DNA of 64,000 nt, from contig CAWCNY010000003.1 in NCBI GenBank assembly GCA_963797095.1, positions 896,001-960,000 of the forward strand. The letters are read 5' to 3'. Within the stretch, counting starts at the first letter, position 1. Every line of letters begins with the position of its first letter. Shown piece by piece: positions 1-17,511 of the stretch. The notes below the pieces were generated by a model, which made no database searches, was not told the origin of the DNA, and worked only from the letters and a program-made list of their open reading frames with translations. Source of the stretch: an uncultured Chloroflexia bacterium. Its GTDB lineage: Bacteria > Chloroflexota > Chloroflexia > QHBQ01 > JADMIH01. The position numbers and the translations under genes are program-made.

Positions 1-818
1 TCGTAGGCGTTCGAGTCCTGGCCGCCGTCCGCCTTGGTGCGGTGGACCAGCCGAAGGTAATCGCGTTCCACCAGGCTTGCCTTGAGGCGGTGCAGGTAGG
101 CGGGCGTGTAGCCTGTGAGGGCGGCCATGCGCATGATGCTGGGGTAGGGGAGGGCGGTGTCCCACTGGTAGGAGAAGATGTAGGCCACGAACCACACCTG
201 CTGGGGGGTCATGCCGAGGCCCGCGCTACAGGTAAAGAGGGCGCGAGGCACCGCGGCCACGCCATAGCGCGTGATCACCCTGCCATAGCGCGCCACGAAG
301 CTGGTGTCGCGCTCCGACCTCTCCAGCTCGTTCAGGGATGCCCAGGTGTCCTCGGTCTGGTCGGTGGCTCCCGCCTGTGATGCGTGCTCCCTGGTAACGG
401 GCACGCCTATAGCGGGGTTGCTCATGCCTGCGCTTTGCAGGTCTTTGCGCTGCTCGATGATGCACGCTTCGAGATGGCCGAACAGGGGCGCGAAATCGTA
501 TGCGTTGGATTCCTGCCCGCGCTCCTGCGATACGCGAGGGTAGACCAGGAGGTAGCCCATCTCGCGTAGCTCGTCGCTGTAGCGCTGCAACTGGCGCTTG
601 CTCATGCCTGAGCAGCGGGCCATTACGCCGAGGCTTGGGTAGGGAAGGTCCTCGTCCCACTTGTGAGATAGGATGTAGGAGATGAACCATATGTGCTGAG
701 CATACAGGTCGAGCTTGCTGCCAAAGTGATAGAGCGCCGAGGGGAGGGCCGCGATCCCGTGCTGTAGGATCACCCTCCCGAAGCGGGCAGCGAAGCTGGA
801 TCTTCCTGAATTTGGCAT
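1..818 (-). CDS. Putative replication initiator with two tandem DnaD-N/HTH_36-like winged-helix domains (runs off left edge; absent from ORF track)
   Basis: Hand translation from ATG at 818 (AGGAGG 7 nt upstream) is open to position 1: MPNSGRSSFAARFGRVILQHGIAALPSALYHF...WDEDLPYPSLGVMARCSGMSKRQLQRYSDELREMGYL...GQESNAYDFAPLFGHLE, then a linker, then a second copy SFVARYGRVITRYGVAAVPRALF...WDTALPYPSIMRMAALTGYT...GQDSNAY. The YPS-x-HTH-...-N-x-Y-D-F-x-P-L pattern resembles DnaD N-terminal and phage/plasmid initiator wHTH domains. The ORF is well supported; the function is inferred. Confidence 0.75.
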   Translation of the reverse strand, partial: MPNSGRSSFAARFGRVILQHGIAALPSALYHFGSKLDLYAQHIWFISYILSHKWDEDLPYPSLGVMARCSGMSKRQLQRYSDELREMGYLLVYPRVSQERGQESNAYDFAPLFGHLEACIIEQRKDLQSAGMSNPAIGVPVTREHASQAGATDQTEDTWASLNELERSERDTSFVARYGRVITRYGVAAVPRALFTCSAGLGMTPQQVWFVAYIFSYQWDTALPYPSIMRMAALTGYTPAYLHRLKASLVERDYLRLVHRTKADGGQDSNAY

Positions 819-838
819 AAAACATCCTCCTGTACCTC

Positions 839-867
839 TTGACAGGGGGATGGGCCGGTGCTACAAT
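839..867 (+). promoter_or_regulatory. Sigma70-type promoter antisense to the rep leader
   Basis: TTGACA(839-844)-N17-TACAAT(862-867) with TG at the extended -10 position; no credible plus-strand CDS follows. Confidence 0.8.
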
Positions 868-873
868 GCGTTT

Positions 874-963
874 GAGCCTACATTGTGCAGGTGCTCCTCC
901 CACCAAGAGGGCCACCACTACAGAACCTTCAAGACCTGACTGTTACCAGCAGTCGGGTTTTTT
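874..963 (+). ncRNA. Candidate counter-transcribed antisense RNA (ctRNA), ~90 nt
   Basis: Bounded by the 839-867 promoter and the 931-963 terminator; internal hairpin GGTGCTCCTC-ccaccaa-GAGGGCCACC; 5' end estimated. Confidence 0.6.
931..963 (+). terminator. Intrinsic terminator of the candidate ctRNA
   Basis: AAGACCTGACTG-ttaccag-CAGTCGGGTTTT plus T tract; the non-Watson-Crick pairs are G-U only on the plus strand. Confidence 0.75.
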
Positions 964-1113
964 GTTGGTTCCGCGTCTGCGGTTGTAAAAGGGGAACGGG
1001 GCTATCGCGTCTCCCATTCCTGTAGATTTGCTAAGTCATTGTCTCTCCATGTTGGCTGTTGGCCGCGCAACCTGTTTGCCGAAAAAAAAGTACACGAAAA
1101 ACTCCCATGCCTA

Positions 1114-1143
1114 TTGACAGGGAGCCTGTGACCATGCTATATT
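1114..1143 (+). promoter_or_regulatory. Second sigma70-type promoter antisense to the phd-rep transcript
   Basis: TTGACA(1114-1119)-N18-TATATT with extended TG; the -10 box overlaps the imperfect palindrome TATATTGA-gg-TTGCGCAA-TCAATATA (1138-1163). Confidence 0.6.
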
Positions 1144-1149
1144 GAGGTT

Positions 1150-1242
1150 GCGCAATCAATATACGGCTACAGTGCCCCTGCAAGGGCCCTAGTGGCGGAA
1201 CCGGAAGCCTCTTAGACTGCAATCTTCGAGGTTTCACTATTT
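1150..1242 (+). ncRNA. Possible second small antisense RNA
   Basis: Follows promoter 2; small hairpin CCC-tgcaa-GGG, then GAAGCCTC...GAGGTTTC (1204-1235); layout parallels the first unit but the U tract is weak. Confidence 0.35.
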
Positions 1243-1485
1243 AAGCCGCCCCTTTGTGGGTGCGTGAGGCGCGTTTTCTGCCTCCATCAAGTCTCGTTTG
1301 CTCTCGGTATATCTCCCTCTACCTCCGGCTTCGTGGTACGCACTTGCCGGGCGGTGCCTCTAGTTGCTGCTCAGGTCCGGCTGTTGCCATGCCTTTCTGC
1401 GGGTAGGCCTTCGGGACCTTGTCTTGCCAAACTGCAATTTGACACGACATATCCTTTCGTACAGATCCCCGATTGAGGACGGCAT

Positions 1486-1719
1486 TTAGCCATCAGTGCC
1501 GGTAGCCTGCTGCTCCGGCTCCTGGGGTTGTCCCAGCTTCTCTAGCTGCTCCAGGCGTTCGACTATCGCGTCGTAGTGCTCGGCGTCGAGTACGACGAAC
1601 CTCTGCCTTCCCTTGACCACCAGCACGGGACGGCCTTTGGAAGCCTGTTCCAACTGCGGACCGGGGTTCATTCGGAAGCTCTTGTAATCAACTACGTCTC
1701 TCAACTGTACCTGCGCCAT
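1486..1719 (-). CDS. Phd/YefM-fold antitoxin-like DNA-binding protein (no adjacent toxin)
   Basis: 77 aa; VVDYKSFRMNPGPQLEQASKGRPVLVVKGRQRFVVLDAEHYDAIVERLE follows the Phd/YefM pattern; GGAGG RBS. Confidence 0.75.
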   Translation of the reverse strand: MAQVQLRDVVDYKSFRMNPGPQLEQASKGRPVLVVKGRQRFVVLDAEHYDAIVERLEQLEKLGQPQEPEQQATGTDG

Positions 1720-1784
1720 AGCCGACCTCCGTATGCAGCGAGTATTACCGGGCGGGTTGTTGATCCTATTATCGCACCAGCTAC

Positions 1785-1862
1785 GTAGATATCTCCAACT
1801 TTTGCACGCGTAGAATCTCCAACCTGACCGGATGATAGCGGATGTACAGTAAGCCAGGCAAG
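1785..1862 (-). promoter_or_regulatory. Promoter and operator-like repeats upstream of the Phd-like gene
   Basis: GTAGATATCTCCAAC (1785-1799) and GTAGAATCTCCAAC (1810-1823); minus-strand TTGCCT-N18-TATCAT. Confidence 0.5.
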
Positions 1863-1922
1863 GGGTTTTTGCACATCCTGGGTCCTTTGCCGCCGGATGA
1901 GTTGTGCCTGGAGGGGCCGGGA

Positions 1923-1940
1923 TTTTTGTCGCGACAAAAA
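1923..1940. promoter_or_regulatory. Perfect palindrome TTTTTGTCGCGACAAAAA (parS-like candidate), copy 1
   Basis: Loop-less 18-bp palindrome with an identical copy at 17492-17509. Confidence 0.5.
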
Positions 1941-2018
1941 AAATGTGTACAAAAGAGCCAGGTTGGAGCTATATTCCGAACCCGGCTCTTCAATGCTTTC
2001 CTTGTTGTTGGTATTGTG

Positions 2019-5000
2019 CTAGAAACCCGGCAGGCAGCCCGCGAATGGATGGTGGTTGGTCGCTCCTGTGCCTGTGAACGAGCTGACAGCCAGGTTGCCA
2101 TTGAGTTGCCCGTTAGCGAAGGTGAGCCTTGCCAGGGGTGCCAGCAAGCTCCCCTGCATCCCTATGTTCGCCATTGTGAGCGTGGTGGCTTGTGGGAAGT
2201 TGTACAGCACTTTCTCTCGTGTGGTGCCGTTGATGCTGATGCCGAAGTTCGCCAGAGCCAGGGCAGTACCATCCACGTTCACCAGCACCGTAGAGCCTGC
2301 CGGTGCATTGATCGTCAAACTGGAGGCTCTTGAGAGGTTGGCCCCTGCGATGTTGAAGACATTCAGGTTGGGGCTGGTGCCGGTGAGGGTGTACTGGTTG
2401 TACTGCCAGACGATTGTGCCGTTTGTGGGGAGTGCTGCCCATGAAGTAGAAGCGGAGCGCAGATACTGCCCGGCGGCATCGAAGTCGAGCACGCTACCCT
2501 GGCGCTTGCTGCCATGCGGGAAACCGACGTTGGCGAAGGTGCCTGCACCCTCATACACGGCGTTGCCATTGGCGACCTGCCCGTTAGCGAACGTGATATT
2601 CGCGCCACCAATCAGATCGTCGCGCGTACCCTCGGAGTTCGACAAGGCGCTCCCTATGCTGTAATTGGCAATGGTAATATTGCCTCCGGCGGCCACGCGG
2701 CCCTCTGTCTGTGAGTTGGCGGCGTTGAGAGTGCCAAGCACGAACAGGTTGAAATCGGATGCCAACTCCAGTGGTGTGCAAGCTCCCACCGGGGTGCTTG
2801 TAGGTGTGGGGGTAAGGGTGGGGGTGAGTGTCGGTGTTCTGGTGGCCCTGCCTGTAGCGGTTCGTGTAGGCGTTCTGGTGGTGGTGCTGGTCCGTGTAGG
2901 CGTGAGCGTTCGCGTAAGTGTAGGGGTTCGTGTGCTTGTGGGCGTTCTGGTTGAAGTGGTGACTTGTGTGTTTGTTGGAGTGTAAGTGAGCGTATTAGTG
3001 GGTGCAGTGGTAGGTGTGTTTGTTGGGGTGTTGGTGGGTGAATAGGTGGCCGTGTTGGTGGGTGAATAGGTGGCCGTGTTGGTGGGTGAATAGGTGGCCG
3101 TGTTGGTGGGTGTATTTGTCGGGATGCTGGTGGTAGTGGGAGTACGGCTTGGTGTGGCGGTTGCAGAGGGAGTTGAAGTAGGAGCGGTTGTTGAGGTGAA
3201 GGTCGGTGTTGCAGTATGGCTGGGTGTGTTGGTGGGTATGGCAGTGTTTGTTGCGGTTGATGTGGGCGTGGACGTAGGGGTGCCGGTCGGCTCAGGAACC
3301 TGAGTGTTGGTAAAAGTAAGTGTGGGCGTGGCGGTGGCAGTAGGGGTATCCGTGGGTGCGCTTGTAGATGTGCTTGTGGGTGCAGTTGTAGGCGTGGCCG
3401 TCGCGAGTGGGTCAATGAGGATGATGGGGATCGTCTGGGTGCTGCCGTTATCCAGGAATCCGCTGTCCACAGCGCCGCCCACAAGGCCATCCTGCTGGCC
3501 GTTGAGCATGGCATAGTAGTCCTCGCCACGCCCGGCCAATTGCAGGGTCACAGGCTCCTGTATCGGGCCGAATACCCAGCCTCTGCCGTCAGCGCCCCCG
3601 AACCACACGCTGTTGGGGATCTCGGTCAGCACCTGGGAACCGTCGTAGCCAAGCCTCCGGCCCGCACCATCCACGACCAGCGTATTCACAGGGTCGCTGA
3701 TCGCCGCCCAGATGCTGCCTGCATCGATGCGCGCCAGCCCCTGCGAAATGTCCTCCGGTTGGTAGTTTAGGGTCAGCGTACCCAGGATGGCCTTTTGTAC
3801 GTCCAGGTTGTAGGGGAGGTCTGTGTGGCCGGTCTCACCTTGCGTATTTACGCCTTTGGCGAACGGCCTGAGCGTCACGCGGGAATCGCCCACAAACTGG
3901 TCGCGCGAGGAAACCAGGGGCACCGTGGTGTCGCCTCCGTTGGCGGCGCGCTTGTCTTCGTACCAGACCTCGTTTGAGCCGGGCAGATGCGCGATCGTTT
4001 CATCGAAGCGGACAGGCCAGCAGTTGGCGCAAATGATCGGCCCCGTATGTTGAAGGGTGCTGACCGGCGTATTTCCATCCGTGCCGTAGATATCCGTGAC
4101 CTGAGCCTGGTTGGTGAAGGCGTTGGGGTCGCCGTTAGCACCCGGCAGGTCCAGCCCGTCGTTCAGGTCAAGCAGCAGGTCATTGCGGCTGTCGGGGTCC
4201 TGGTTGACATTCTGGGGGCCTGAGCCTGTATCGAGGAAATCATAGGTTGCCAGGAGGGCGCGTGCGGTCGGCACGTACTGAGTTATGAACTTCTGAGGGT
4301 CGGGGTGGCCCGATCCATCGTCAATGGTAGCAAGCGATATATTGATGTCAGGCCCGGTGACAACCTGGCCCTTGAGGACCTTCTGATAGGCGCTGTTGAC
4401 GATCTTGCTGAGCACAAACTGGAAGGCAGGCTCGACGCCCCAGTTGTTGTGCAGGGGGTTCCAGGCCTTGGAAGCGCCGCGATTGGGCACGCCTATCATG
4501 ACGAAGTTATTGATAGGGGGGAGCCTGTTCGTGCCATCGTACAGGCCGTTGTAGGCGTCGCTCTCCAGGTAGGTGCGCACCACCAGCCCCCCGGTGCTGT
4601 GTGCGATCACATCAACCGAGTCGGGTGGAACTCCGTTGTGGTTGGCTGCCCACGCTTGGGACGCTTGCCGCAGGAAGACGCCCAGGTAGTCGACGCCATA
4701 CCGGTAGTTGCCGCTGCTGATGCCCGCGGCGGTCAGTCCGCTGATCTGCCCATCGGGGGTGCCGTCGGTAGGGCCGGGGGGTAGCCGCCAATCGTAGTTG
4801 ACCACCCACAGGTCCTGCCCCTGCACGTAACCGATGTTCTCGAAGGTCCGGATCAGGTCGTCGTAAACGTGGGAGAGGGGGTCGATCTGCAATTGGGAGG
4901 GCGGCACTCCCCTGTGCATGAGCCAGGGCAGGTCGTTGCTCGTGTCAGCGGCGTAGGTGGCGCCAACACCCGGAACGATCAGCACGGGGTGGCGGTGCGT

Positions 5001-6095
5001 GAGCAGAAAGCCGAATGCGCGACCTCCATCCCGCCTACCAATGCCGACAATCTGGCCCGCATCGTTCAGCCCGACGTAGGGGATACCGGAGCAGCCCAGG
5101 TCTTCCCAACCGAGGTTGGGGTCGATCAGGTCCTTCAAGATCTTTACTTCGCCGTTCGACCAGATAAGATACGAATAGAAGCTTGGGGTACTTGGATTAG
5201 TTACATATCCCGCTATAAGCCCGGAATCGTTGATGCGCAACGATGATGGAAACCCATCTGTGTACATGCCAGGTGGCAATTCCAGAGGGGTCATTACCCC
5301 GTTCTGCCAGTGGAACGGCACTTTATCGGCGGGATCATAGTCTACGGTGGAGGAATATCCAACTATCTCCCCTGCGTTGTTGATGTCGAAAGCATAGGAA
5401 TTTATGCCGCCAAGCGTACCGAGGTTGGTCGCGGAGAGCGAGCCTGCGCTCCAGAGTGTGGCTGCTATATCATCGGGGCCGATGTCATAATAGCTAGCAC
5501 CCGCGATGTCACCCGCATCGTTTATCGCCCAGCCTTCGCTGAGGCAGTAGCCTCCATTCAAACCCGGTAGGTCAATGTATTGGCCGTCGTGAAGCAGGAA
5601 ACCACCACAGCCTACGAGGTCTTCACCTGGCTCCCCCACTATGTCCCCGTCGTCGTTGATCGCTTGCGGGACGAAGAACTGGCCGTCCGGTAGTTCGGGG
5701 AGCTCGCTTAAGGTGCCGTTGTCCCAGAGCATGCCCATATAAGTAGTATCAGGCAAGGTGATGTGACCTACTATCTGGCCGACGTTATTGAAGGCTACAG
5801 GCTCGAAAGTGTGGTCATCCGGATCAAGGTCGATGAATTCGCCGTTGCGCCAGAGGAAGGGGAAATCATCGGCAAGGTATCGATGGTAGACACCGATGAT
5901 CTCACCTTTGTTGTTGATCGCATAAGGGATTACATCTTCTCCGAGGTTAACGATGTCGTAAGGTGCGTTTGATGCCGCGTGCGCTACCGACCGGTCCGGC
6001 CCTGACCAGGGCTTGCTGAGAGAGAGGGGCAGTAGCGCCGACAGCAGCGCTACCAGGAGTGAAACCCTGCGAAAGAGCGAGCGAGACTTTTCCAT
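2019..6095 (-). CDS. Large secreted modular protein: HAF repeats + alpha/beta-hydrolase (lipase/LCAT-like) + Thr/Pro linker + choice-of-anchor A domain
   Basis: Signal peptide [18 protein letters not shown]; repeated A(I/F)N(N/D)xG(E/Q/D)IVG...W; [27 protein letters not shown] motifs; C-terminal FNLFVLG...EGRVAAGGN...YNFPQAT...GSLLAP; start at 6095 follows AAGGAAGG. Confidence 0.85.
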
Positions 6096-6328
6096 TTGAT
6101 CCTTCCTTTGGTGATTGCTTTGGGATAGCACCGGTTACCGGGCCAGCGCCGGTTACTGGTATATAACCTACCAAGCGTTCCCAGATCGTTCCCACGTCGT
6201 TGGGCCCGGGATGTTCTTCACCCCAAATCCCCCTATATAAATAGCGGGGGCATTCGAAGAAAGCCAAAATCGCGGCCAGGCCGCGATTTTGGCTGTTTTA
6301 GGGGCAGATTGCACCCGCCTGGTCCGAA

Positions 6329-17489: not shown

Positions 17490-17511
17490 GATTTTTGTCG
17501 CGACAAAAATC
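17490..17511. promoter_or_regulatory. Perfect 22-bp palindrome GATTTTTGTCGCGACAAAAATC (parS-like candidate), copy 2
   Basis: Read directly; lies between convergent genes. Confidence 0.5.

Follow-up and report, generated by a model that had tools for sequence, protein, structure and literature searches.

A putative plasmid-type maintenance module with predicted antisense control of a tandem winged-helix Rep in a Chloroflexia genome

At the left edge of the window, by which we mean the whole 64,000-nucleotide stretch analyzed here (G000:C3:896001-960000, plus strand), lies a locus from the genome of an uncultured soil Chloroflexia bacterium that comprises a phd/yefM-like gene, a long leader and a gene for a putative replication initiator, rep, all on the minus strand (Table 1). 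The source assembly (G000) has 6.02 Mb in 8 contigs, a G+C content of 58%, a completeness of 93% and a contamination of 0.6%; contig C3, with 1.15 Mb, makes up 19% of it. A first-pass annotation of the window had taken the locus for a replication region in which a repressor and antisense RNA accompany an initiator and a parS-like site. Scans for open reading frames (ORFs), motifs and promoters recovered every feature that it had listed, and most of these recur in the genomes of relatives. A further 15 kb to the left of the window were added to the analysis, and the look beyond the edge that this annotation had proposed revealed the rest of rep, followed by parA, a P22_AR_N gene and parB.

Table 1. 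Features of the locus, in window positions unless a position on contig C3 is given
Feature	Position	Strand	Remarks
rep, first 272 codons	3..818	-	ORF; remainder left of window
Rest of rep, parA, P22_AR_N/ORF6C gene, parB	C3:891679-896000	-	Left of window
U-tract (819-822) and hairpin (823-852), rep Shine-Dalgarno sequence in 3' arm	819..852	-	Terminator-like site; minimum free energy folds
Predicted promoter of RNA 1 (TTGACA-17-TACAAT, TG)	839..867	+	11/12 matches
Putative countertranscript RNA 1 (~90 nt; start probably near 873-875)	868..963	+	Antisense to rep leader; conservation, covariation
Second predicted promoter (TTGACA-18-TATATT, TG)	1114..1143	+	11/12 matches; copy of the architecture with an inverted repeat around the -35 box
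Second, diverged countertranscript-like element	1144..1257	+	Putative paralogue of RNA 1
phd/yefM-like gene, 77 aa	1486..1719	-	ORF; family models
Direct repeats GTAGA(T)ATCTCCAAC, 25 bp apart	1785-1799, 1810-1823	.	~+2 to +40 of phd promoter; candidate operator
Promoter-like site for phd (TTGCCT-18-TATCAT)	1832..1861	-	-35 at 1856-1861, -10 at 1832-1837; hexamers in conserved columns
Perfect 18-bp palindrome TTTTTGTCGCGACAAAAA, parS-like	1923..1940	.	Same place in L029; one change in L030
Exact copy of 16-bp palindrome	17493..17508 (C3:913493)	.	Genome search

The full-length Rep, encoded by C3:895157-896818 on the minus strand, has 554 amino acids. Like plasmid Reps of the HTH_36 type, it contains HTH_36 (PF13730), the only Pfam domain found and one that was recognized in two stretches; the scores of 39.9 and 37 bits exceed the cut-off of 25. 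An AlphaFold model made with 47 homologues had a mean predicted local distance difference test score (pLDDT) of 69, with confident winged-helix modules at residues 9-129 and 156-285, disorder from about 290 to 470 and a confident four-helix domain at residues 475-553, which reached a pLDDT of 88 when modeled alone. The solved structures at the top of the Foldseek list were DnaD (2v79, the N-domain of the Bacillus subtilis protein, and 9a5c); the match to 2v79 had an E value of 9e-3 and a target TM score of 0.66 to 0.68, winged helix-turn-helix (wHTH) proteins of the MarR type came next, and no row reached E 0.001. The duplicated DnaD-N-like wHTH that had been seen in the window's part of the ORF is thus confirmed by two HTH_36 stretches, two modeled modules and the DnaD N-domain as the top structural match. 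Pfam DnaD_N, which marks a DnaD-like N-terminal domain, matched a paralogue in the same genome (E 4e-14; see below) and most homologues, and PHROG families named "replication initiation protein" or "O-like" matched Rep with E values of 2e-8 to 8e-3. DnaA_N was found in 10 of 120 listed homologues; in all four that were rescanned (P0024, P0032, P0081 and P0096, 667 to 747 amino acids), DnaA_N (PF11638) followed the four-helix domain at the extreme C terminus, with E values of 1e-12 to 9e-16. As part of the reading of the whole module given below, Rep is probably a DNA-binding replication initiator of an uncharacterized family.

A separate observation concerns the coding sequence of the linker. 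A search of rep for Rep boxes gave none; what it did reveal was one conserved palindrome of 10 bp. In the disordered linker, Asp-Ser-Asn was encoded by GATTCGAAT in 23 of the 23 genes that have the motif (26 genes were examined); the site corresponds to rep codons ~452 to 456 (C3:~895.45 kb) and was also seen inside rep of loci L039 to L068. Elsewhere in those rep genes, GAT, TCG and AAT account for no more than 0.42, 0.17 and 0.34 of their codon families. Two rep genes with GACTCGAGTC had both arms altered and the palindrome retained, and the window's own rep carries a degenerate GATTTGAGTC at this place. The biased Asp-Ser-Asn codons and the paired changes of the arms argue for selection at the nucleotide level on a palindrome of 10 to 14 bp inside rep, possibly a cis-acting site such as a Rep box or an origin element. 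Genome-wide, the motif was not enriched (7 copies versus ~3.7 expected).

The leader between phd and rep (positions 819-1485, 667 bp) contains only short ORFs, none of which is conserved at the nucleotide level in orthologous loci; no leader peptide is conserved either, and the window has AUG-UAG where the orthologous locus L029 has a longer frame. The region holds five promoter-like sites, compared with 0.5 ± 0.6 in shuffled sequences. Among them are the two plus-strand promoters that had been noted before, both of which proved near consensus. The one closer to rep precedes RNA 1, for which a central hairpin with the loop CCACCAA and a terminator hairpin of 14 pairs (931-961), followed by a T-run, are predicted. 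Positions 830-975 have a nucleotide identity of 88% to the two loci that are closest, whereas the Rep proteins are 57 to 58% identical; at the paralogue, the nucleotide identity is 72%. A pattern search for a rep start with a TTGAC-type -35 box, a -10 box and a T-run on the opposite strand found the element in the window, at the paralogue and at 26 of 35 public loci, and three of the nine misses have less than 150 bp of upstream sequence.

All 23 versions of the RNA that were folded form the terminator hairpin, and 22 also form the central hairpin, whose loop contains CCAA, GCCA or CCCA. RNAalifold, run on a plain MAFFT alignment, also found the terminator, and both partners had changed in 4 of its 12 pairs. 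A covariance model built from the central helix and the terminator matched 45 places in 64 sources, equivalent to 27 distinct sequences; one of the sources, locus L020 (G032), gave no match. In the alignment fitted to this model, which favors structure and for that reason tells somewhat against its own result, 93.4% of the cells pair and 11 of 17 pairs are changed on both sides, values that none of 500 shuffles reached, and pairing falls to 36 to 62% when the partners are slid by 1 to 3 columns. Because of this bias, the result from the plain alignment was weighed too. The frequent U-G pairs (18 at one terminator position) fit a transcript of the plus strand alone. The central loop is CCGCCAA in 10 of the 27 sequences and contains CCAA in 21, and the terminator loop is CGCCAA in 11. 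In its sequence features, RNA 1 thus has what defines a countertranscript, its own promoter and its own terminator placed against the rep leader, and the synthesis of Rep appears to be held down by this small, conserved antisense RNA.

The second promoter is linked to the first by a direct repeat (D1; 827-847 and 1102-1122, 81% identical), and the element behind it lies 275 bp further up the leader from RNA 1. Positions 1105-1257 (~154 nt) are 84 to 88% identical in L029 and L030, where the rest of the leader is not alignable; the sequences in this comparison are three and near-identical. The model of RNA 1 matched positions 1144-1237 end to end and weakly (15.6 bits, E 0.0023 in a search of 1.3 kb), the z-score of the fold was -2.2, and neither a terminator scan nor folding revealed a clear terminator. 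At L049 and L060, too, the model matched a second time, more weakly and upstream of the first match. Of the earlier proposal that both promoters make short structured RNAs, the part on RNA 1 is upheld by its terminator and its covariation, whereas the second part is qualified by the weak model match and the lack of a clear terminator. We read the second element as a diverged tandem duplicate of RNA 1, which may add to control or be a relic.

In the sense of the mRNA, the 40 nt before the AUG of rep fold into a hairpin, whose loop contains the complement of the antisense -35 box; 4 to 6 U and the start codon follow. In 23 of 23 leaders from different loci, minimum free energy folding placed the Shine-Dalgarno (SD) sequence in the 3' arm of such a hairpin with a U-tract, with z-scores of -1.1 to -4.6, and the arms themselves are diverse (CCUCCUGU/ACAGGAGG, CCCUCCAC/GUGGAGGG, GCACCUCC/GGAGGUGC). 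These are the hallmarks of a stem-loop at the rep start that sequesters the ribosome binding site (RBS) or terminates transcription. Through an inverted repeat (835-850 and 895-910), the target of the antisense RNA could base-pair with the loop and 5' arm of the SD hairpin; in a manual pairing in the mRNA sense, 15 of 16 positions match, G-U included. At most loci, the target stretch (CCUCUUGG-type) and the SD-hairpin loop are complementary, and the mean energy of the duplex was -10.9 for a locus's own pairs versus -10.1 across loci (195 of 5,000 permutations were as low), a marginal difference among related sequences. When the target was masked, the SD sequence was paired with a probability of ~1 in 22 of 23 leaders. 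Against a switch between the two pairings stands that unmasked folding at equilibrium yields the SD hairpin when no antisense RNA is present, with a median probability of an unpaired SD of 0.21, and that only 11 of 23 leaders exceeded the masked state in this probability by more than 0.2 (0.27 versus 0.25 in the window's own). Since the SD sequence is little freed at equilibrium, the switch is weakly supported, and the case for pre-emptor pairing is weak.

The minus-strand gene upstream of the leader had been called Phd/YefM-like, and TIGR01552 (phd_fam) agrees with 25.5 bits against a cut-off of 20.8; Pfam PF02604 gave 24.1 bits (E 3e-5), below its gathering threshold of 29.8. The protein matched no PDB sequence at E <=1. 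No cognate toxin is encoded directly downstream of phd, where only ORFs of 40 to 43 codons were found in a stretch that is not conserved in orthologous loci. Between the promoter-like site for phd and rep, there is no other minus-strand promoter-like site except at 1797-1768, and the phd site probably also drives rep. The operator-like repeats that had been announced near phd are two direct repeats just downstream of this promoter; they are conserved in both orthologous loci, and the block 1785-1823 is near-invariant in the alignment with L029 and L030. An inverted third copy (1959-1972) is present in the window only. By its sequence and position, the Phd-like protein is a candidate for a Cop-like repressor. 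A Phd-like gene precedes rep at 4 of 10 relatives' loci and 7 of 35 public loci (the two sets overlap in contigs).

Downstream of rep on the minus strand follow a ParA of 366 amino acids with an N-terminal helix-turn-helix (HTH) of the HTH_17/MerR type (Pfam AAA_31, E 8e-47; HTH_17, E 8.5e-13), a P22_AR_N/ORF6C protein of 328 amino acids, a ParB of 386 amino acids (ParB_N, E 1.6e-20; HTH_ParB, E 3.7e-12; TIGR00180, 126 bits versus a cut-off of 58), an ORF of 130 amino acids without a match and a Uma2 nuclease; beyond Uma2 lie an IS66-family transposase and an ATP-binding cassette (ABC) sugar transporter. An N-terminal HTH on a Walker-type ParA, combined with a ParB that has both domains, characterizes a type I ParABS system with a large ParA. 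In tblastn searches with the window proteins, ParA adjoined rep at 9 and ParB at 8 of the 10 relatives' loci. Among the public loci, ParA adjoins rep at 25 of 35, and among the 10 loci without it are several contigs only a few kilobases long. The gene order varies and is phd-rep-parA-parB, parA-parB-rep or divergent. In the whole assembly, only two ParA/ParB pairs were found, that of the module and a canonical pair of the Soj/Spo0J type (C3:191-193 kb), which adjoins dnaK and dnaJ.

The palindrome just upstream of phd had been described as parS-like. Its 16-bp core occurs in six exact copies in 6.0 Mb (C3:632105, 803610, 891629, 897924 and 913493; C1:7919), versus ~6e-4 expected by our own arithmetic. 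With one mismatch allowed there are 12 sites, and the outermost base differs in five of the six extra ones. Seven sites are on C3, at about -528, -263, -149, -91, -3.5, +3 and +18 kb from the module (counted roughly from 895 kb); one is just past the parB stop codon and one just upstream of phd, as in a repeated centromere. Relatives with other ParB types have, at the same kinds of position, other repeated palindromes, GTTGTCATGACAAC at six loci, GTTTTCGCGAAAAC at two and TCTGTATATACAGA at one, and the closest locus carries TTTGTCGCGACAAA. The parS-like nature of the palindrome is therefore favored by its multiple copies, its clustering round the locus and its change with the type of ParB, a pattern that would be expected of specific centromere sites. 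As a side observation, the repeated 14-bp palindromes GTTGTCATGACAAC, GTTTTCGCGAAAAC and TCTGTATATACAGA, which belong to L041, L042, L046, L047, L048, L051, L054, L058 and L061, are variants of a GTTnTC..GAnAAC theme near the canonical parS.

The locus probably forms the control end of a maintenance module of plasmid type, in which the phd-like gene, a long leader, rep, parA, the P22_AR_N gene and parB follow in this order, with antisense control similar to that of pT181 and pSK41. The linkage to parAB, the homologues with DnaA_N, the covariation of the RNA and the palindrome in multiple copies all support the original reading as a replication region, and from them we infer the molecular activities, the transcript ends and a start of replication at the locus. 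In such a module, the Phd-like protein would probably act on the two direct repeats at the transcription start and so repress the promoter of phd and rep. A countertranscript of ~90 nt, made from the strong promoter in the leader, would pair with the rep mRNA, probably beginning with a loop-loop contact between loops of the CGCCAA and UUGGCG types. This pairing would favor the hairpin and U-tract that bury the SD sequence of rep before the AUG, so that translation would be blocked, transcription stopped, or both. In Rep, the two DnaD_N/HTH_36 winged helices would bind DNA, and a flexible linker would separate them from the C-terminal four-helix domain, which probably recruits host replication proteins. 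ParB and the type-Ia-like ParA with its N-terminal HTH would act on the 16-bp parS-like palindromes, which lie on both sides of the module and become sparser across several hundred kilobases of the contig.

Several results weigh against this reading. Rep matched no NCBIfam model, neither of two Pfam scans found RepA_N (PF06970) at E <=1 or 0.01, and no other curated Rep family was matched. Repeat scans revealed no convincing iterons in or near rep. The C-terminal domain has no recognizable relative in Pfam (rows at chance level), in PDB profile searches (nothing below E 0.08), in Foldseek (nothing below E 7) or in the Atlas, where there were unnamed clusters and a lead of 0.88 to L_lactis_RepB_C, below the meaningful level. 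Rfam gave nothing at gathering level for the RNA, only sub-threshold matches at chance level to sar (21 versus 43 bits) and ArcZ (20 versus 66 bits). A search of sequencing runs with window positions 1-2100 returned no RNA run and three DNA runs from soil metagenomes of one study, with 9 to 30% of the words. Finally, 5 of the 12 palindromes lie on other contigs.

If the 554-amino-acid protein were instead a transcription factor or nucleoid protein of a partition or regulatory cassette, the RNA would be an ordinary divergent small RNA or a mere promoter-terminator pair. Such an explanation would agree with the MarR-type regulators that fill the Foldseek list after DnaD, with public annotations as "helix-turn-helix domain-containing protein" or "AraC-like" and with repeat scans that identified no origin, iterons or DnaA boxes; moreover, at six loci of other Chloroflexota that have distant single-wHTH relatives, tblastn with the window queries found no ParA or ParB nearby. 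We nevertheless regard it as very improbable, since an ordinary regulator would hardly account for the fusions to DnaA_N, the matches to DnaD_N and the PHROG initiators, the constant linkage to parAB and the leader architecture of a copy-control type, which is conserved in 23 of 23 leaders.

The reading as a plasmid-type module invites comparison with described systems. In pT181, an 87-nt countertranscript is complementary to the rep leader, and a terminator-like stem-loop containing the RBS lies directly before the rep start; in pIP501 (CopR) and pMV158, a small repressor gene upstream of rep is added (accessible part of PMC5703833). The locus is like pT181 and pIP501 in its RNA of ~90 nt, its SD-holding hairpin with a U-tract and, in the window, the Phd-like gene upstream. 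It differs from both in its Rep, which is unrelated (neither Rep_trans nor PriCT_1), in the antisense -35 box within the loop of the SD hairpin and the two tandem RNA genes, and in its host, a member of the Chloroflexia whose replicon may be megabase-sized. Unlike in pT181, a pre-emptor is not clearly predicted, and unlike in pIP501 and pMV158, the candidate repressor has a Phd/YefM fold and not a ribbon-helix-helix or XRE-HTH fold. By analogy, the control logic appears to match that of pT181 RNAI with stem-loop IV, of pIP501 RNAIII and of pSK41 RNAI. The same part of that source describes the pSK41 initiator as DnaD-like in both its N- and C-terminal domains and RNAI as an RNA of ~83 nt with two stem-loops that binds the leader ~100 nt upstream of the translation start, leading to sequestration of the RBS (PMC5703833). 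The DnaD_N-like fold and an RNA target ~55 to 150 nt upstream of the AUG are shared with pSK41. In contrast to its initiator, our Rep has no Pfam RepA_N, two wHTH in tandem, a long disordered linker and no Rep boxes inside its gene, and no solved structure was found to resemble its four-helix C-terminal domain.

The title of a paper by Asano et al. of 1998 on the Inc RNA of ColIb-P9, known from reference lists, reportedly names a loop 5'-rUUGGCG-3'. This hexamer of the IncI-alpha/IncB group, compared by title alone, is the exact complement of the CGCCAA loops at our loci; in difference to that group, no conserved leader peptide is evident here. The replication initiators of the Paracoccus plasmids pAES1, pAES7, pMARC3 and pMOS2 were defined by PF13730 HTH_36 (PMC3832669, as far as its accessible part goes), the domain for which the window's Rep also passes the cut-off. 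Rep weakly matched HTH proteins on 56 PLSDB plasmids, some of only 5 to 7 kb, with 25 to 38% identity over one wHTH, and none of these matches covered 80% of Rep. A module that unites partition genes and an initiator with a countertranscript RNA and palindromic parS on large secondary replicons is known as repABC. Unlike in repABC, the order here is rep-parA-X-parB, the RNA lies upstream of rep and not between repB and repC, Rep is not a RepC, and ParA reached only 94 of the 348 bits of TIGR03453 (partition_RepA), with ParB also far below the RepB cut-off. The locus thus belongs neither to RepA_N, by the family model, nor to repABC. To judge from their sequences, its parts appear to differ from those of every described system checked, in the initiator, the Phd-fold candidate repressor, the embedded antisense promoter, the duplicated RNA genes and the host. 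The overall logic is, by analogy, that of a classical low-copy plasmid module with a repressor, countertranscript control of rep and a type I ParABS.

Rep homologues were found almost exclusively in metagenome-assembled genomes (MAGs) of Chloroflexia. The full-length family is present in 26 of 41 relatives' genomes (G000 counted, and the unpublished genomes G021, G022 and G032 included), which divide by family of the order into 18 of 24, 7 of 9 and 0 of 5. In a sample of 301 genomes of the phylum (including the unpublished G242), 17 matched at E 1e-10, G000 among them, and the other 16 matches were partial, covering one wHTH with or without the C-terminal domain. The combination of tandem wHTH, linker and C-terminal domain is specific to the Chloroflexia family, and because the family is narrow, the reach of our findings is limited. 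The literature searches made here gave no description of this Rep family. The description of secondary replicons in Chloroflexota has only just begun. For the chromid-like contigs of Ktedonobacteria, a report of 2026 states, in its accessible part, that Pfam searches gave no canonical initiator of a Rep family (PMC13289182); to go by that part, the initiators of secondary replicons in Chloroflexota are still to be settled. The locus offers a testable candidate Rep family for a neighboring class, together with putative centromere sites and a complete candidate circuit for copy control. Genetic tools in Chloroflexia could gain from it their first replicon parts, namely an origin region, Rep, a par system and a copy-control RNA. 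If the reading is true, antisense copy control of the CGCCAA/UUGGCG type reaches far beyond Proteobacteria and Firmicutes.

The genome contains a paralogous rep at C3:69.7-71.4 kb (locus L005, C3:64001-80000). It encodes 575 amino acids, is 40% identical and has the same antisense RNA and SD hairpin, without parAB. Its neighbors are Replic_Relax, an excisionase-like HTH and a coupling protein of the VirD4/TraG type; tyrosine integrases are located at 82-101 kb, and the region looks like an integrative and conjugative element (ICE) that uses the same initiator family. A paralogue with its RNA in an ICE-like region means that the family also serves mobile elements, a point against the main reading.

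What kind of replicon the module in the window belongs to was approached through the composition and gene content of C3. Cumulative G-C reaches its global minimum in a plateau at 880-896 kb that includes the locus and its maximum at 208 kb. The GC-skew switch that had been proposed as a check is thus found at the locus; it is weak evidence, since every contig has its own extremes. Coding-strand composition was rejected as the cause of the skew, the mean coding-strand skew being 0.000 over 3,015 long ORFs. C3 holds 2 of the 71 tRNA genes and no rRNA gene. Against a replicon of its own speak that dnaA, on C2, is not at a skew switch, that a rough count of ORF strands gave a weak plus-strand excess at ~100-950 kb, opposite to an origin at 890 kb, and that synteny beyond the module is missing in two same-genus relatives, where the flanks of G014:C44 and G015:C57 map to scattered places. 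The absence of phage and conjugation genes from the 20 large window ORFs scanned fits the first-pass reading as a replication region; its claim of a secondary replicon is tempered by dnaK, dnaJ and the canonical parAB, which C3 carries at 183-193 kb.

These results bear on an alternative in which the module is the remnant of a plasmid or ICE in the main chromosome, where the mutual regulation may persist and the module replicates nothing, or only after excision. We judge this to be rather unlikely and still worth serious attention. The module does lie at 896 kb of a 1.15-Mb contig on which dnaK, dnaJ and the canonical parAB are also encoded, its flanks are not syntenic in G014 and G015, an IS66-family element is 2 kb from parB, and the rep family is multi-copy in relatives, with at least five loci in G004 and many in G035; the surroundings of the paralogue at C3:70 kb, with transfer genes and integrases, point the same way. 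A remnant would, however, have to be squared with genes that are all intact, with clear purifying selection on the regulatory RNA and hairpin and with the absence of any tyrosine integrase on C3 from 256 kb to 1106 kb, which leaves none within 600 kb on the left side or 200 kb on the right. The palindromes, which extend from 528 kb to the left to 18 kb to the right and become denser towards the locus, are unlike a small recent insert, the minimum of the cumulative skew is at the locus, and no fusion mediated by insertion sequences (IS) is visible, since four IS copies have intact 8-bp duplications. In addition, no phage or transfer gene was detected among the 20 large window ORFs and 10 left-flank ORFs scanned. 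A clear prophage early region, the setting that would have spoken against the earlier reading, is therefore not what the window ORFs show, and a prophage or ICE context for the window copy is ruled out for the stretches scanned, which contain no phage or transfer genes and no nearby integrase.

Between a chromid-like replicon and a large integrated or co-integrated plasmid, we lean slightly towards the former. A more far-reaching version, that the tandem-wHTH family is the missing initiator of chromid-like secondary replicons and large plasmids in an order of Chloroflexia, that its circuit arose independently of the plasmid solutions of enterobacteria and Gram-positive bacteria and converged on them, and that C3, or most of it, is replicated from the module, is a possibility that we put forward only tentatively. 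The circuit would in this case combine a countertranscript with CGCCAA loops, an SD-burying, terminator-like hairpin with the antisense promoter in its loop, possibly a competing long-range pairing, and a Cop repressor of the Phd fold; for this composition, too, we would claim no more than a tentative standing.

The proposed check of circularity turned out negative, in that no contig end overlaps its own start. The left end of C3 (C3:1-3000) is 99.9% identical to C1:518921-521920, and a 640-bp element at this end has about 10 further copies; copies of repeats at the left end of C3 indicate that the contig breaks in repeats. Four copies of a 1.47-kb IS66-family element, 99.6 to 100% identical, are located at C3:888098-889567, C3:193297-194763, C3:1100251-1101720 and C1:529839-531307; one of them is 2 kb from the parB of the module and another ~50 bp from the canonical parA. 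A cointegrate mediated by this element was discarded as the cause of the two skew switches, since the 8-bp target duplications of all four copies are intact. The canonical parS 16-mer, in the sequence that we take to be canonical, occurs in the genome only as a pair at C2:85.4 kb (C2:85442-85488, 31 bp apart), whereas the canonical parAB lies on C3 and dnaA at C2:768.7 kb. Either the origin-region genes of the chromosome are unusually scattered or the contigs join there.

In Pfam, the 20 large window ORFs matched glycoside hydrolases, transporters for sugars and other substrates, a kinase, a pyridoxal phosphate (PLP) enzyme and an adhesin, or had no match. The window gene at 2019-6131 (minus strand) encodes a secreted protein of 1,370 amino acids that ends in a pAdhesive_15 domain (ice-binding-like adhesive). 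Its middle part is lipase-like, and a long repeat tract rich in Thr and Pro contains repeats of the TNTATYSP type.

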